A stretch of 6,554 bases of DNA from a virus (Duplodnaviria; Heunggongvirae; Uroviricota; Caudoviricetes). Of the stretch, positions 1 through 5,645 are shown piece by piece (position 1 is the first letter of the stretch; each line of letters starts with the position of its first letter). A program made the position numbers and the translations under genes. Location of the stretch: the IMG/VR virus record IMGVR_UViG_2695420685_000018, one strand, 5' to 3'. The notes beneath the pieces are model-generated. The model had not been told where the DNA came from, searched no databases, and was given only the letters and a program-made list of their open reading frames with translations.

Positions 1-1625
1 ACCAGTTGCTGCGCCTCTGTCTGCGAAAAAATCTCCGGATCATCAGGAAAACGGATGGCATACGACGTGGCTTCATCCGCAGGCGTGGGATCGGCTTTCA
101 TACGGGCATAGAGAATTTCTTTTGCGGTGTCCGTCCCCACTTCGCACAGATACACGCCCCGCTGATTGCGGGTTTTTGGCATGGTGATCACCTGCTTGCC
201 ATAAACAGATGCACCTTTTACCGGCAGCACCCGGAAAACACCGTGTTTTTTTGACCTCTGATAGACAATTTCGCCATCGATCCCCCCGGTGTCCCAGCAG
301 ACACGGGAAATGGTCATTTCGGTTCCGTCTGCATGGCGGTATTTTTTGTTGATCGCCACATCCACACGTAACAGCGTCTCTTCCTCATCGGGACGCCCCA
401 TAATGATGATTTTATCCACCAGAAAGGCTTCCTCTCCCGGAGCCCATCCCCAGACATACATCTCAAAACGGTTTCGCTGCGAGTCAATGCCCGCCGTCAG
501 ATAAACCACCCGGGAAGGCACCGCCGCCGTGTAACGCACAACCTTATCCATCAGCACCTGGTGATCGAGTTTTTCGCCCACGGCCTCTTCCCAGGTCTCG
601 CCCAGCGTGGTGTTCACAAAGGTTTTCAGGCCGTTGGGATCTTTCAGTGCATCCAGCCAGTCATAGACAATCTGTACCCAGGTGGTGAACGGACTGTACG
701 CCGTCCAGATATGGAATGTGATGGAGCGCGGCGGCGGAATTTCATTATCCGCGGCGCTGAAAAATGTCAGACCGTCACGAGTCCACATGCCCGTGTTTTC
801 ACAGATCCACCGCCCGTTACTCTGGTCAAGCTCAGACTGATGGATCACACAGCCATGATGCTCACAAAGGTAGAAAACACTTTCTGGCTTATTCTTCTCC
901 CACTTAAGACCGAAAGGCGAGGCATCATCGCCAAATTTCAGATACTGCTCCTCCCCACAGTGCGGACAGGGCACATAAAAACGCATGAAGTGTGCCGACT
1001 CGTTAGCGGCTTTTTCGATCTGGCAGGAGCCTTTGATTTTAGGCGTCGAGCCGCGAATGGATTTTGGCCATACAGAGCCCTCAATACGTTTATCCCCCAG
1101 CAGGGTTGGCGAACCCTCTTTTTCAACATCCGGTTCGAACGAGGAAAGCTCGTCATAACAACCCACACCGGAGGAAAAACGCTTCAGGGTGAGCGTATTA
1201 TCGCGGTGTTTTCTTCCGAACCATGGAGCCAGCTCCAGCAATGCAGGAACATCCCTTATCGTTGGCTCAACATGAGATTTCATAAAATCTTCAGCAGCTG
1301 AGTCCGTGGGCTGAAAAAGAAGGCTGTTGCGTGATTTATGCTCAATAAAATAAGCCTCCACTCCCAGCAACATCTTTGTATAACCAACACGGGCAGATTT
1401 AATCAGGTTAACCGTGCGAATCAGATCGTTGCCCATACAGTTCATGATGCCAACCTGAAACGGCAGTGTTTCCCACCGCCCCGGGGTATAAGACGACTCT
1501 TTAGGAAGGTAATAATGTTTATTGGCCCACTGAACTGTCGTCAGTGGAACAGGAATAATGAGAGATAAAAGCCCTGTAGCTATCGCACCGGCTGCATTAG
1601 CTGCCTTCTGTGCGTCTGAAATCAT
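1..1625 (-). CDS. A: Terminase large subunit (lambda gpA-like), N-terminal ~541 codons; C-terminal part lies beyond the left window edge
   Basis: Seen in sequence: ATG at 1625-1623 on the minus strand, frame open to position 1 (no complete minus-strand ORF is reported here, consistent with run-off). Hand translation gives [62 protein letters not shown]... at the start and ...[19 protein letters not shown] at the window edge, same frame. Established knowledge (recalled, not searched): collinear with lambda gpA (…[20 protein letters not shown]…, …HFPNNPDIFDLTEAQQL…). Start overlaps the 3' end of nu1 as in lambda. The middle of the gene was not verified codon by codon. Confidence 0.9.
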
Positions 1626-2145
1626 CGATCCACCCGCCCACGTTTTCACCGGCCTTAGCTGCAACATTGGAGGCTTTCGCGATTTCAGTTTTCACCACAT
1701 CAAGGTGTGATGGTGAAATGTCCGGATATTTACGCTGTAATGTCAACGGCACACGCACAAGTATCCCCGAAATCTCCTGTGCCACACGTTGCAGAATGAA
1801 GGTAAACAGTTCAGTTTCCAGCACCACTCCGTCTTCACGGGCATTTTTCAGTTCCTGCGCATCTGCCTGCGCTTTTGTGAGCCGGTAGCGTTCATAGTCA
1901 ATGGTGCCGGGTTGTAAATCTGACTCCGCTGCCGCACGCAAATCGGCCAGTTCTTTGCGGAGCTTTTCGTTTTCGATATCAGTTTCCCTCTGCGCATACC
2001 ACTGAATTGCCATGGCAGTATCAAATACAGATTCAATGCCCTTACTGCCTTTGGAGACGCAAGGGAGCCCCTGAGACTGCCAGCGTTCAATCGTCCGCGG
2101 GTCCACGTTAAAAATTTCGGCAAGCCTCTTTTTATTAACCTTCAT
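1597..2145 (-). CDS. nu1: Terminase small subunit (lambda Nu1-like), 182 aa
   Basis: ORF track 1597..2169 (-). From the internal ATG at 2145 the product [28 protein letters not shown]...[18 protein letters not shown]...[28 protein letters not shown]... closely parallels lambda Nu1 (MEVNKKQLADIFGASIRTIQNWQEQGMP...) from memory. The 8 upstream codons begin with a non-ATG codon and have no lambda counterpart. The start lies about 187 bp downstream of cosN, matching lambda geometry. Confidence 0.9.
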
Positions 2146-2360
2146 AGAACAACCCATTATCAAATACAAGGCCCGACATGAAAACGCCAGAAAAAGGCAT
2201 TTTCGGACACTTTCATGTCGGACATTTATGAATGCAATATTAAAAAAAACAAAAAGTTATATTCGAGAAGTACCGACACGATTTTCCCTGAAAAATTTTC
2301 ATAAATAGTGAAAAACCGCGAGGTCGCCGCCCCGTAACGATCTGGATCACCGGAAAGGAC
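2146..2360 (-). other. cos site region (cosQ-like flank, cosN, cosB-like repeats) of a lambda-type packaging system
   Basis: Seen in sequence: the minus strand reads ...GGTGATCCAGATCGTTACG|GGGCGGCGACCT|CGCGGTTTTTCACTATTTATGAAAATTTTTCAGGG..., nearly identical to the lambda genome end/start junction as I recall it (…GGTGATCCGACAGGTTACG + GGGCGGCGACCTCGCGGGTTTTCGCTATTTATGAAAATTTTCCGG…). Between cosN and the nu1 start are repeated CCGACA/TGTCGG motifs, including an 11-bp inverted pair (plus ccgacatgaaa 2173-2183 and tttcatgtcgg 2211-2221), plausible Nu1-binding R elements, plus an A-tract at about 2241-2256. Confidence 0.8.
2321..2332 (-). other. cosN 12-nt cohesive-end sequence
   Basis: Plus strand aggtcgccgccc at 2321-2332; its complement reads 5'-GGGCGGCGACCT-3', identical to the lambda left cohesive end (established knowledge). 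Confidence 0.85.
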
Positions 2361-2488
2361 CCGCCAACGACTTTCGCGTGCAGGCATTAAAAATTTTGCA
2401 GTTCCATGCCTAGTTGAAACCTCGATTTCTATAACATCCAATTTTGTAAATTTAGATATAGCTCAACTTTTCCCAATGTTTTCAAGTG

Positions 2489-2494
2489 TATAAA
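2489..2494 (+). promoter_or_regulatory. Candidate sigma70 -10 element (TATAAA) for the plus-strand 355-aa gene; no convincing -35
   Basis: Seen in sequence: TATAAA about 60 nt upstream of the ATG at 2556 in an AT-rich tract. The gene is antisense to the phage late operon and so needs its own promoter somewhere in 2400-2555. Weak call. Confidence 0.25.
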
Positions 2495-2544
2495 AACAAT
2501 TGGCGTTACGCCATAACACTATACTTAGGATAAGTAAAGATTTT

Positions 2545-2550
2545 AAGGAG
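2545..2550 (+). promoter_or_regulatory. Shine-Dalgarno AAGGAG for the 355-aa gene
   Basis: Seen in sequence: aaggag at 2545-2550, 5 nt upstream of the ATG at 2556. Confidence 0.7.
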
Positions 2551-2555
2551 TTTTA

Positions 2556-3623
2556 ATGAGTCAACATCAATATTATCCACAGCTGAAATGGAAGCCTGCT
2601 GAATATGAATCTCTGATGCTTTTAGATCAAACTACGCTCTCTGGTTTTACTCCGATCATTACCATTCCAGACATAGACTGGGATTATGAAAACGAATGCT
2701 ACAAGAAGAGTTTGAGTTCTTACTTATCTGACTTCGGTATTAACCTTGCGGCATCCTGGAAAGCCAATCGTCCTGTTTTGCTGGATGTTAAATATTTAGA
2801 TAAACATGGTTCGAGCCGCCATCATCCTCTAGATATGTGTATCCAAGATGCTAGAGTAAATGGTAAGGAAATTATCCCTGTTGTTTCTCCCGCATATTCA
2901 ACAAACTATATACATGCTGTTCAACGCAACTTAATCAATGGGCTCGCTATATCTATCACCCCCCAGACATGGCACCAATTCACAAGTCTGGTTAACCACT
3001 TAAATATTCATCCTAGTTTAATTGATGTAATCATTGATTTTGGAGATATTCAAAACGCAACTGATAGTTTAAAACAACAAGCATTAAGCATGGTCAACAC
3101 ATTATCAGGCCAAGCTCCGTGGAGAAACTTGATTTTATCTTCAACCGCATACCCGGCATCACAGGCAGGGATACCGCAACATCAAGTTCATCATATTCCG
3201 CGCCATGAATACGATCTTTGGATGTACGTAGTACAGAATTTTAGCAATGGAAGAACGCCAAGTTTTAGTGATTATCCCACCGCTAGCTCTACCATTACGA
3301 GCGTAGACCCACGCTTCATGTCTCAGTATGTCTCAGTGAGATATTCGAACGATACCTCATGGATCTTTGTAAAAGGTACCGCAGTTAAAGGAAATGGATG
3401 GGGCCAAACTAAAAACTTATGTACTACCCTTGTTAGTTCGCCAGAGTATCAAGTCTTTGGCTCCAAATTTAGTTGGGGGGATGATTACATTTACCAAAGA
3501 TCATTAGGCGCTAACAAATCTGGCGGCTCTAAAGAATGGCGTAAAGTTGCACATACGCACCATATTACGTTAGTCGTGAGACAGCTTTATTGGTTGGCGC
3601 AGACTCAGCCTGCCAAGCCTTAA
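2556..3623 (+). CDS. Hypothetical protein, 355 aa, no confident family assignment; first gene of the cos-proximal AT-rich insert
   Basis: ORF track 2556..3623 (+). ATG preceded by a strong SD, long ORF in a low-GC segment, no predicted transmembrane stretch or signal peptide by eye. Unverified impression only: resembles proteins annotated as 'beta family' or 'sce7725-like'. Requires a profile search. Confidence 0.8.
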   Translation: MSQHQYYPQLKWKPAEYESLMLLDQTTLSGFTPIITIPDIDWDYENECYKKSLSSYLSDFGINLAASWKANRPVLLDVKYLDKHGSSRHHPLDMCIQDARVNGKEIIPVVSPAYSTNYIHAVQRNLINGLAISITPQTWHQFTSLVNHLNIHPSLIDVIIDFGDIQNATDSLKQQALSMVNTLSGQAPWRNLILSSTAYPASQAGIPQHQVHHIPRHEYDLWMYVVQNFSNGRTPSFSDYPTASSTITSVDPRFMSQYVSVRYSNDTSWIFVKGTAVKGNGWGQTKNLCTTLVSSPEYQVFGSKFSWGDDYIYQRSLGANKSGGSKEWRKVAHTHHITLVVRQLYWLAQTQPAKP

Positions 3624-4185
3624 CTTTCCAGCCTACGCGTTTCTTTAAGGCTGTTCTGACTTCAGGCCTGAGATTCGCTATTGGAATATTTTCCGCAATA
3701 ATATTCCATAACTCAAATCGGGGCTTGCTTTTGATTCCTTTGGAATAGCCCCATCGTTCAAGTACGTCGATACATTCATCTTTCCAAAGCAATTGAGCGA
3801 GCATCAATGTGTCATGGTTTCGATTAAGCTTTTCTCCACGCATGTGCTTTATAAGAATGGCGCCTTTTGGCCCAACAGAAACCGTTTTAACGCCCCACCA
3901 ACCTGGGATTAACTTTAATGCTCCCTCAAGGTGTTTCTCAGCTACGACAAGAGTAACCTTGTCCATTACAGAAGAATAATGCTTGATTTGAAGAGGCAAA
4001 CGCTCCAAAGAGTCATATTCACTTTTGAGCTCGTACCCGTGTATAACACCATTTATTACAGCAATGTCTGCTCTACTGGCGCCAAGGGATATGGAAAATT
4101 CATCGACCACAAGGCAGTCTGGATCTAAATGCGATTCTTTCAAAAGCTTATGATGCACCGCGAACCTAACATCTTGATCTTTCAT
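3565..4185 (-). CDS. Hypothetical protein, 206 aa, with an N-terminal PD-(D/E)xK-like nuclease motif (putative nuclease); second gene of the insert
   Basis: ORF track 3565..4185 (-). ATG at 4185-4183 preceded by AAGGAG. Residues ...VVDEF(28-30)...RADIAV(38-43)...GYELKS(50-55) fit the hydrophobic-strand-D / hydrophobic-strand-E-x-K arrangement of PD-(D/E)xK nucleases (inference from motif spacing). Unverified impression: resembles 'sce7726-like' or MmcB-like proteins. Confidence 0.75.
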   Translation of the reverse strand: MKDQDVRFAVHHKLLKESHLDPDCLVVDEFSISLGASRADIAVINGVIHGYELKSEYDSLERLPLQIKHYSSVMDKVTLVVAEKHLEGALKLIPGWWGVKTVSVGPKGAILIKHMRGEKLNRNHDTLMLAQLLWKDECIDVLERWGYSKGIKSKPRFELWNIIAENIPIANLRPEVRTALKKRVGWKVKAWQAESAPTNKAVSRLT

Positions 4186-4190
4186 GACTT

Positions 4191-4196
4191 CTCCTT
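4191..4196 (-). promoter_or_regulatory. Shine-Dalgarno AAGGAG for the 206-aa gene
   Basis: Seen in sequence: plus ctcctt at 4191-4196 is AAGGAG on the minus strand, 5 nt upstream of the ATG at 4185. Confidence 0.7.
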
Positions 4197-4213
4197 ACTC
4201 CCTCCGTTATTGA

Positions 4214-4219
4214 ATTATA
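4214..4219 (-). promoter_or_regulatory. Candidate sigma70 -10 hexamer (TATAAT, perfect consensus) for the 206-aa gene
   Basis: Seen in sequence: plus attata at 4214-4219 is TATAAT on the minus strand, about 29 nt upstream of the ATG. The -35 position is occupied by a tandem direct repeat rather than a TTGACA-like hexamer. Confidence 0.45.
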
Positions 4220-4222
4220 GCG

Positions 4223-4242
4223 CACTGCATTTTACTGCATTT
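4223..4242. repeat. Tandem 10-bp direct repeat (cactgcattt / tactgcattt) overlapping the -35 region of the 206-aa gene promoter; candidate operator
   Basis: Seen in sequence: 4223-4232 cactgcattt and 4233-4242 tactgcattt, 9 of 10 identical, head to tail, immediately upstream of the TATAAT element on the minus strand. Confidence 0.6.
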
Positions 4243-4535
4243 GAGAGATTTGACCACTTCAATCACAAAATGCTTATCTGCAGCAACAAGATTCATAGCC
4301 ATACGACTATGGTGATTACCTTTTGTCTGGAAAACTGACCATTCCACGAAGATCAGATAGGTCTATAGAATCTTGGTTTGTCATAGCGTTCGTCTTACTT
4401 TGAGATGAACCTTTGCTGCATAGGAGATCAGCCCGTCAAGGCTCACCAGCACTAACTGACTACTCAAAGGCTCATTCCAAAGGGTTTGGTTCGACGTGGT
4501 TGAGTGCGCTGCGGTGCGCGGTGAAATACCTGTAC

Positions 4536-4566
4536 AAAAATGCCCCGCATCTGCGAGGCATTTTCC
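4536..4566 (-). terminator. Intrinsic terminator-like hairpin downstream of Rz, with some bidirectional potential
   Basis: Seen in sequence: plus aaaaaTGCCCCGCATCTGCGAGGCAtttt. On the minus-strand RNA this is a 7-bp GC-rich stem (GCCUCGC/GCGGGGC, one G-U pair), 4-nt loop, followed by AUUUUU. It lies about 40 nt past the Rz stop. On the plus strand the stem carries a C-A mismatch and a shorter U tract. Confidence 0.55.
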
Positions 4567-4601
4567 TGAAAGTCACGTATTAAATTTCAGTGAAATTAAA
4601 A

Positions 4602-5060
4602 TTATTTTAAGCACTGCGTCCTGATGTACTCCTGCAGGTAGTTGACCTGAGCGGTTATCTTGTCGATTCCACTTCGGAGACGGTAATAATTGAGTTCAGC
4701 ATCTGCTGTAAGTCTTGGGCTTTCTCCATCGCCCATGCTGCTGGCTCCGGTCGTTGACTTTGCACAGGTGGCGGCGACTTGCAGGCGCTTACGCCCAGCA
4801 GAAACATCAGCACGAAGACTTTCGATAGTCGCGTTAGCATCAGCAAGCTCCTTTGTGTATCTGGCGTCGAGTTCTGCTACATCACGCTGACGCATCTGCA
4901 TGTCAGTAATTACCACGTTCGCCAGCTTCAGTTCTCTGGCATTTTTGTCGCGCTGGGCTTTGTAGGTAATGGCGTTATCGCGGTAATGATTAACAGCCCA
5001 TGACAGGCAGACGATGGTGCAGATAACCAGAGTATAAATAATCGCTGCGACTCTGCTCAC
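4602..5060 (-). CDS. Rz: Rz, inner-membrane spanin subunit (lambda Rz-like)
   Basis: ORF track 4602..5075 (-). From the GTG at 5060 the product [48 protein letters not shown]... is near-identical to lambda Rz ([48 protein letters not shown]...) from memory. The GTG start overlaps the endolysin TGA stop (GTGA). The upstream in-frame codon at 5075 is TTG and has no lambda counterpart. Confidence 0.88.
4655..4840 (-). CDS. Rz1: Rz1, outer-membrane lipoprotein spanin subunit, embedded in the +1 frame of Rz
   Basis: ORF track 4655..4846 (-). From the ATG at 4840: [36 protein letters not shown]..., i.e. a signal peptide with lipobox V-S-A-C followed by a Pro-rich segment, entirely inside Rz in another frame. 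This is the defining Rz1 architecture (established knowledge). Confidence 0.85.
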
Positions 5061-5590
5061 TGATCTATCCCCCAACAGGCTAATGCGCTTTCCTGGTCAC
5101 GACGAATAACCTGTCCATAGCAGTTATTTGAACGTATGCGGCAATCGCGCCCACCATCTTTTATCCACCAGCGAATCGCCTCGCATGCGCCCTTACGATC
5201 ACCGGCATTCAGCCGCTTATAAAACGTCGACGGGAAACACTTACCGGGGCCAATGTTATAGGGACAGAATGACGCTATACCCGCTTTCTGTGGTTCGGTC
5301 AGTGGTACTTTAATATTGCGCTCCACCCATGCCAGCGCCTTATCACGTTCAATAGCGTTAACCTGGTCGCATTTTTCCTTCGACAGCTTCATTCCCGGTA
5401 TGACGGGCTTACCATCCACCATTGTGGCACCACGACAGATGGTCCATATACCGGAACCATCGCGGTATGCCGTAGTGTGGTTACCCTCTTTTTCATCCAG
5501 AAACTGGTCAAGTATTTGAGGAGCAGACGCGCCTGCAGCAATCAGCGCCAGAACAGCAGCTGACAGGCCGTATTTGATTTTTGCGCTCAT
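5057..5590 (-). CDS. R: SAR endolysin (T4-lysozyme-type muramidase, phage 21 R / DLP12 RrrD-like), 177 aa
   Basis: ORF track 5057..5590 (-). N-terminal Gly/Ala-rich weakly hydrophobic segment [16 protein letters not shown] (signal-arrest-release type) followed by the catalytic spacing E35-x8-D44-x5-T50 ([16 protein letters not shown]), as in P21 R and T4 lysozyme E11/D20/T26 (established knowledge). Confidence 0.9.
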
Positions 5591-5645
5591 GGATATTTAT
5601 CAGGATGCTACCAATGAAAGATACTGGAAAGCCAACTGCAAAAAG

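Follow-up and report, generated by a model that had tools for sequence, protein, structure and literature searches.

The gene at positions 2556 to 3623 of the window (the whole 6,554-nucleotide stretch analysed here, from IMG/VR virus record IMGVR_UViG_2695420685_000018) encodes a protein of the beta family that is paired, tail to tail, with a gene for a cII-like nuclease, and it is this combination of beta and cII nuclease, not gop and beta, that forms the conserved unit. The two genes are the only ones on a low-GC accessory cassette of an Escherichia coli lambdoid prophage, and by analogy with characterised systems the cassette is best read as a gop-less two-gene relative of P4 gop-beta-cII that would also be related to component C of PD-lambda-2. 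On balance, we think it probable that the cassette guards the lysogen from other phages, with the nuclease as effector and beta, an enzymatic or sensing partner, restraining or licensing it. The cassette and its flanks comprise the following features.

1597-2169, minus strand: terminase small subunit gene (nu1)
2321-2332: lambda-type cosN, reverse complement of GGGCGGCGACCT, flanked by nu1 and the cassette
2371..4380, no strand assigned: low-GC accessory cassette (moron), carrying beta and the cII-like gene only
2451..2495, plus strand: putative beta promoter/operator, TTAGAT.TAGCTCAA...TTTTCA..GTATAAAA, from a five-genus alignment
2545..2550, plus strand: Shine-Dalgarno sequence AAGGAG, 5-nt spacer to the beta ATG at 2556, read from the sequence
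2556..3623, plus strand: beta family gene, 355 aa, predicted divergent TIM barrel, then a C-terminal helix
3565..3623, no strand assigned: tail-to-tail overlap of the beta and cII-like coding regions, 59 bp
3565..4185, minus strand: sce7726 / Phage_P4_cII family gene, 206 aa, convergent to beta
4191..4196, minus strand: Shine-Dalgarno sequence AAGGAG for the cII-like gene, with a 5-nt spacer to its ATG, read from the sequence
4210..4265, minus strand: putative promoter/operator block of the cII-like gene, from a five-genus alignment
4381-4600: rha remnant, ~220 bp, adjoining Rz
4602-5075, minus strand: Rz gene
5057-5590, minus strand: lysozyme gene

The beta gene and its family

The original prediction had described a well-initiated 355-aa reading frame here, and its limits are exact, with the AAGGAG at a 5-nt spacing from the ATG at 2556; in an alignment of five genera the AAGGA core of this Shine-Dalgarno sequence is kept. 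The absence of a transmembrane segment or signal peptide, likewise predicted, is borne out by the hydropathy profile (maximum Kyte-Doolittle 19-residue mean of 1.05) and by the polar N-terminus. The protein matches Pfam PF14350 (Beta_protein) at an E value of 8.2e-56 and 190.4 bits (cutoff 27), with residues 6-342 aligned to profile positions 1-342 of 342, and an identical protein in RefSeq, WP_000077907.1, bears the NCBI name 'beta family protein', PF14350 being precomputed for the identical cluster. Membership in the PF14350 family is essentially certain, and the earlier, unaided impression of a 'beta family' protein was right; the gene is already annotated by its family name, and no new family has been discovered. 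PHROG 9159 is matched at 7e-153. Among PADLOC models the best matches are to PD-Lambda-2_C (PDLC03984 at 4.4e-32, with its best stretch at residues 141-344, and PDLC03983 at 2.2e-25), the P4-derived 'beta' model (PDLC02985) being weaker at 3.5e-10 over residues 3-338. Direct comparison with P4 beta, the founding member of the family, gives a BLASTP E value of 3e-7 and 22% identity across the full length of both 355-aa proteins, and a family HMM built here retrieves P4 beta at 2.7e-39.

A HMMER search of 1.84 billion representatives returned 3,775 related clusters (50% identity), 1,441 of them below 1e-30; since nearly all are 350-370 aa long, they make up a large single-domain family. Against orthologues of 77% identity, dN is ~0.15 and dS is saturated, giving a dN/dS of ~0.06-0.08 or less, which indicates that beta is under strong purifying selection. 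With a Pfam match from end to end, ~3,775 related clusters and a low dN/dS, beta is therefore a real gene and no chance open reading frame, and its conservation reaches far beyond this prophage.

A convergent nuclease partner with an overlapping 3′ end

The gene that converges on beta encodes a clear member of the sce7726 family (NF033832 sce7726_fam, 184.1 bits against a cutoff of 70, E value of 2.3e-54), with further matches to the PADLOC model 'cll' (3.8e-31) and to P4 cII (BLASTP 3e-19, 27% identity) and a precomputed annotation as PF26915 (Phage_P4_cII). A PD-(D/E)xK motif is intact (E29, D40, E52-x-K54) on a predicted nuclease fold, which places the protein in that superfamily, and the nuclease domain is followed by a C-terminal helical, SAP-like domain. 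The last 19 residues (188-206), which are the part overlapping beta, are predicted to be disordered and are unconserved, while dN/dS of the gene is ~0.04-0.06. The closest structures are those of MmcB-like / DUF1052 PD-(D/E)xK proteins (PDB 3dnx) and of SAP-plus-nuclease proteins such as FAN1, which have the predicted fold and the catalytic E...D...ExK constellation in common with the cII-like protein, although sequence identity is at most 19%. We know of no link between these proteins and any TIM-barrel partner.

The original prediction had supposed a conserved pair, and this proved correct. Beta loci were gathered from assemblies, genomes, phage records and viral contigs of IMG/VR, and were then searched with HMMs built here; one scan of genome contigs with an alignment of the family returned only 8 loci. 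Among 50 loci made non-redundant at 90% identity, an adjacent convergent cII gene stands at the beta 3′ end in 46. The 3′ ends overlap in 43 of these 46 pairs (median 42 bp; range from a 140-bp overlap to a 27-bp gap). The four loci that lack the pair comprise two at contig ends (L099 and L100), one in which an insertion splits beta (L102) and a genuine PD-lambda-2 system (L110). Hosts of the pair are phages and prophages of Proteobacteria, Bacteroidota and Actinobacteria, with sources that include E. coli, Klebsiella, Cronobacter, Vibrio, Acinetobacter, Burkholderia, a Bacteroidetes MAG and Gordonia/Mycolicibacterium phages, and the pair is also found on plasmids of rhizobia, Rhodococcus and Bacillus.

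A tblastn search with P4 Gop over 55 loci and the window found gop in P4 only, and the plus strand between 2170 and 2556, upstream of beta, holds no open reading frame of more than 29 aa. Genes upstream of beta are otherwise unconserved, the exceptions being PD-Lambda-2_B-like Xre-peptidases (L087, L099, L100, L110) and short ImmA-like peptidases; the true PD-lambda-2 B component is matched at 8e-184 in L110 and at 6e-80 in L087. The L087 locus (2712-5639) is a hybrid, in which the PD-Lambda-2_B-like Xre-peptidase gene directly precedes beta and the convergent cII gene is also there, and in L088 and L102 a short ImmA/IrrE-like metallopeptidase gene precedes beta-cII. L087, L088 and L102 thus link the PD-lambda-2 and beta-cII architectures.

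The two genes are not always kept together in intact form. In the viral contigs L051, L102, L105 and L113, beta is split by frameshifts or insertions and the cII-like gene is intact, so that the nuclease seems to be tolerated without intact beta in at least some genomes, an observation that bears on the toxin/antitoxin and restriction-modification-like models considered below. A cII/sce7726-like nuclease without a beta partner is present in Myxococcus phage Mx4 (L070), and partial cII/sce7726 matches occur in hundreds of records of lytic Staphylococcus, Bacillus and Lactobacillus phages.

A predicted TIM barrel with a conserved putative catalytic face

An AlphaFold2 model of beta, computed with 23 homologues (pLDDT 91.9, pTM 0.91), has strands and helices in alternation and ends in a long helix. 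This topology, together with significant structural similarity to solved TIM barrels, supports a high-confidence prediction of beta as a divergent TIM (beta/alpha)8 barrel. The match is generic and points to no substrate; no characterised enzyme family was matched, and sequence searches of the PDB with the beta and cII profiles gave no significant relatives.

Among 151 members of the family (median identity 28%), fifteen positions are at least 96% conserved: Y6, P8, E16, P33, D77, P108, D161, P200, R216, D239, Y240, Y263, G323, W328 and H336. Six of these (E16, at 99%, D77, D161, D239, W328 and H336) are invariant or nearly so, and all six are present in P4 beta. In the DSSP string of the model, D77, position 133, D161, P200, R216, D239/Y240 and Y263 fall at the C-terminal ends of strands or no more than 3 residues beyond. 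The C-terminal ends of the strands form the catalytic face of TIM barrels, and the model would thus put the conserved acidic, histidine, arginine and tyrosine residues of beta on a putative catalytic face, in what looks like an enzyme or ligand-binding site and unlike a simple antitoxin. The claim that the protein has no recognisable catalytic motif stands insofar as no named motif is present, but it does not extend to the invariant residues E16, D77, D161, R216, D239, Y240, Y263, W328 and H336, which lie on the predicted TIM-barrel face.

Position 133 (window ~2952-2954) is arginine in 97% of the family and serine here, and it is serine, threonine or lysine across the enterobacterial and Vibrio clade. 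This substitution marks the clade and, in the model, falls at the end of a strand on the putative active face.

A mobile cassette at a variable site

The window comes from a lambdoid prophage of E. coli, and many complete E. coli chromosomes contain it at 100% identity. Along the minus strand of strain DA33133 the order is tail and head genes, terminase large and small subunit genes, both cassette genes, and genes for an Rz-type lysis protein, lysozyme, YdfR and holin. The borders of the cassette were set at 2371 and 4380 because in cassette-free E. coli genomes homology to the flanks ends at about window position 2370 and restarts at 4381. As the original prediction had noted, the insert is low in GC (40.6% for 2371-4380, vs ~50% in both flanks), and GC at third codon positions is 0.37 in beta vs 0.49-0.53 in the neighbouring phage genes. 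With cosN separating nu1 from the cassette, the latter comes to lie at the right-hand end of the genome once packaged. The lysis-terminase junction is also where beta-cII is found in prophages of Klebsiella and Cronobacter.

Window positions 4381-4600 are 87% identical to part of rha of P22-like phages, and the corresponding place next to Rz is annotated with a complete 'Rha family transcriptional regulator' in other prophages of E. coli. That only a remnant of rha is found here suggests that the cassette replaced most of this gene. In one E. coli genome (H120, NZ_CP124337.1) the nu1-Rz site holds unrelated cargo, a DUF6979 protein and hypothetical proteins, and in another (H1, NZ_CP115370.1) an IS2 element is inserted inside the region matching window 2200-4600; the nu1-Rz site is a variable cargo hotspot. 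The cassette itself moves between phages, as an identical cassette is found elsewhere next to terminase small subunits with no more than 30-66% identity to the one in this window.

These data bear on the possibility that the pair works for its carrier phage, whether in the control of lysogeny, in recombination or in processing DNA near cos, and not in defence. The cII gene reportedly took its name from a plaque phenotype of P4, the cassette abuts cos, an integrase or cI-like repressor gene adjoins beta-cII in other phages, and stand-alone cII-like nucleases sit in the early operons of lytic phages and of Mx4, so that the nuclease family is not specific to defence. Against such a role, only 126 of 5,426 complete E. 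coli genomes carry the cassette, whereas thousands have the flanking phage genes without it; its GC content is foreign, it is exchanged between phages with different terminases, unrelated cargo occupies the same site in H120, and the pair is also on plasmids. Rarity, foreign GC, exchange, replacement and plasmid carriage together argue for accessory cargo and not a core phage function, and we consider a service to the carrier phage unlikely.

Expression signals of the two genes

The block upstream of beta contains a -10-like TATAAA at 2489-2494 that was not called by a consensus promoter scan. The block upstream of the cII-like gene has TATAAT at 4219-4214 (minus strand), immediately preceded by a tandem 9-10-bp repeat, AAATGCAGT AAAATGCAGT, at 4242-4224 (minus strand), and here the promoter scan did report a promoter-like site, at 4256-4229. 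Both blocks are kept in five genera although the flanking DNA is unalignable, and the tandem AAATGCAGT repeat is kept in the cassettes of E. coli, Klebsiella, Pantoea, Edwardsiella and Pectobacterium, where it may be an operator for autoregulation. With a conserved promoter block of its own, each gene would be expressible in the lysogen.

A simple scan predicted no intrinsic terminator in or near the overlap (3565-3623), and therefore, as far as consensus scans can tell, each transcript would read antisense into the other gene. A universal rule by which beta lies antisense to lytic transcription was rejected: it holds in E. coli, Klebsiella and Cronobacter and fails in the Acinetobacter prophage (L065-L068), in which beta is directly downstream of, and co-directional with, a cI-like S24 repressor gene, a position like that of lambda rexAB. 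In Vibrio (L060), beta comes after an integrase gene. Either location would fit with expression in the lysogen. Since the orientation of beta-cII relative to lytic transcription varies between phages, no single transcriptional logic is established.

Comparison with known systems

The gop-beta-cII system of P4 protects against lambda and P1, and its gop and beta have been treated as a toxin-antitoxin-like pair (Rousset et al. 2022, PMC9122126), the described toxin in P4 being Gop, a protein with two transmembrane segments, and not cII. A phage accessory gene, orf184, triggers the toxicity of P4 gop-beta-cII (Silas et al., bioRxiv 10.1101/2023.04.06.535777). In PD-lambda-2, a system described as derived from a toxin-antitoxin module, defence requires the beta homologue PD-lambda-2C, which has been called 'related to a P4 phage antitoxin', and toxin neutralisation does not (Vassallo et al. 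2022, PMC9519451). A function given earlier as unknown can thus be narrowed, inasmuch as the P4 homologues together with gop are a validated anti-phage system (PMC9122126) and PD-lambda-2 depends on a beta homologue for its defence (PMC9519451); our literature search turned up no publication that deals with the gop-less pair or with the biochemical activity of either beta or cII.

The window cassette and P4 gop-beta-cII (PADLOC/DefenseFinder gop_beta_cll) have the beta and cII homologues and their convergent layout in common, and differ in several respects: (i) P4 carries gop upstream of beta on the same strand, whereas the cassette has no gop, and the P4 system was tested for defence with gop present only; (ii) the sequences have diverged widely (22% identity for beta, 27% for cII), and the cII-like protein has 206 aa here vs 264 in P4; (iii) the genes overlap by 59 bp in the window, whereas those of P4 are 27 bp apart with an annotated terminator in the gap; and (iv) the carrier is a lambdoid prophage here and a P4-like satellite there. 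With PD-lambda-2 the cassette has only the beta-family protein, component C, in common. PD-lambda-2, as at L110, places a HigB-like gene (A) and a gene for an Xre-peptidase (B) ahead of C and has no cII nuclease, whereas the cassette has neither upstream gene and has the nuclease instead.

The likeness to sce7725 that had also been proposed did not hold. The NF033831 sce7725_fam model (cutoff 60 bits) has no match to beta at E ≤ 1, nor has beta any NCBIfam match at all, even though the neighbouring partner is a clear member of sce7726, the other half of the sce7725/sce7726 pair (NF033831/NF033832). When 60 diverse beta proteins were compared with NF033831, 12 gave sub-threshold matches, with a best E value of 8.7e-4; one such match among beta proteins is faint and N-terminal, and no family besides sce7725 recurs in more than 2 of the 60. 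This pattern of sequence similarity suggests that sce7725 is at best a remote sister family of beta, without membership of one in the other. A seed for sce7725 was sought beside plasmid-borne sce7726 genes and none was found there: the partner position of the plasmid-borne sce7726 gene in P. aeruginosa is taken by a Tn3 transposase, and the neighbours of sce7726 genes in Mycobacteroides and Hymenobacter have no NCBIfam match.

Models for the function of the pair

In the reading that we favour, defence of the lysogen, beta and the cII-like gene would act as an autonomous two-gene cassette at a variable site close to cos, flanked by the lysis genes and the terminase gene. Superinfecting phages would be blocked by exclusion or abortive infection, as with the homologues in P4 gop-beta-cII and PD-lambda-2. 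The cII-like nuclease, with its SAP-like and presumptively DNA-binding tail, would be the effector, and beta, as an enzymatic or sensing partner, would hold it in check or license it, while convergent transcription without a terminator would add mutual antisense control. The assignment of roles to beta and to the nuclease is the weakest step: as the described toxin of P4 is Gop, which is absent here, casting the nuclease as effector is an extrapolation.

An alternative is an addiction module without an anti-phage role, in which the nuclease would be a toxin, beta its antitoxin and the antisense arrangement a type-I-like control, the sole benefit being stabilisation of the prophage. The toxin-antitoxin-like treatment of P4 gop/beta (PMC9122126) and the toxin-antitoxin origin of PD-lambda-2 (PMC9519451) fit such a module, as do the 3′ overlap without a predicted terminator and the occurrence of the toxin-antitoxin pairs hok/mok, HicAB and BrnT near beta-cII in several phages. 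With 355 aa and an enzyme-like conserved site, however, beta would be an atypical antitoxin, and both of the homologous systems that have been tested defend against phages, which makes mere addiction rather improbable in our view. A third model borrows the logic of restriction-modification: the TIM barrel of beta would modify DNA or the nucleotide pool, the TGT-like DNA transglycosylase DpdA serving as a model, and the cII-like nuclease would cut unmodified DNA, with the convergent layout setting the order of expression as in some type II restriction-modification systems. It strikes us as quite improbable. That the pair is a decaying, non-functional remnant of a three-gene gop-beta-cII after loss of gop would agree with the lack of a gop homologue or upstream reading frame, with the pseudogenised beta copies elsewhere (L051, L102, L105, L113) and with the IS2 insertion in the cassette region of one E. 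coli strain (H1), but both reading frames are intact, with strong ribosome-binding sites and conserved promoter blocks, dN/dS is ~0.05 with all invariant residues kept, and pairs without gop are the norm (46 of 50 non-redundant loci, gop being in P4 only), so that intact signals, conserved residues and purifying selection largely exclude this highly improbable reading.

Extending the defence reading beyond this prophage, we tentatively propose, as a possibility short of an even chance, that beta-cII is an autonomous immune module across phyla, in which a TIM-barrel enzyme governs or works together with a SAP-tailed PD-(D/E)xK nuclease and the almost invariable 3′ overlap serves as an antisense switch, with gop in P4 and the HigB/Xre-peptidase genes in PD-lambda-2 as lineage-specific add-ons to this core. 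The beta family is large (~3,800 clusters at 50% identity) and sits in two experimentally validated defence systems, and current detection rules, if they ask for three genes, may overlook most beta-cII members. The conserved beta-cII unit, the enzyme-like rather than antitoxin-like look of beta and the nearly constant tail-to-tail overlap together suggest mutations and constructs with which immunity of the gop-beta-cII and PD-lambda-2 types can be tested. The remaining interest lies in the chemistry of this defence-associated TIM-barrel family and in its strikingly conserved tail-to-tail overlap with a nuclease partner.

Other reading frames in the window

An Rfam search of the window gave no match. 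The 71-aa open reading frame at 2226-2441 (minus strand), which spans cos, is probably spurious. A 63-aa open reading frame at 4655-4846 (minus strand), out of frame within Rz and with a lipobox-like LLGVSAC, is the expected Rz1 spanin gene.
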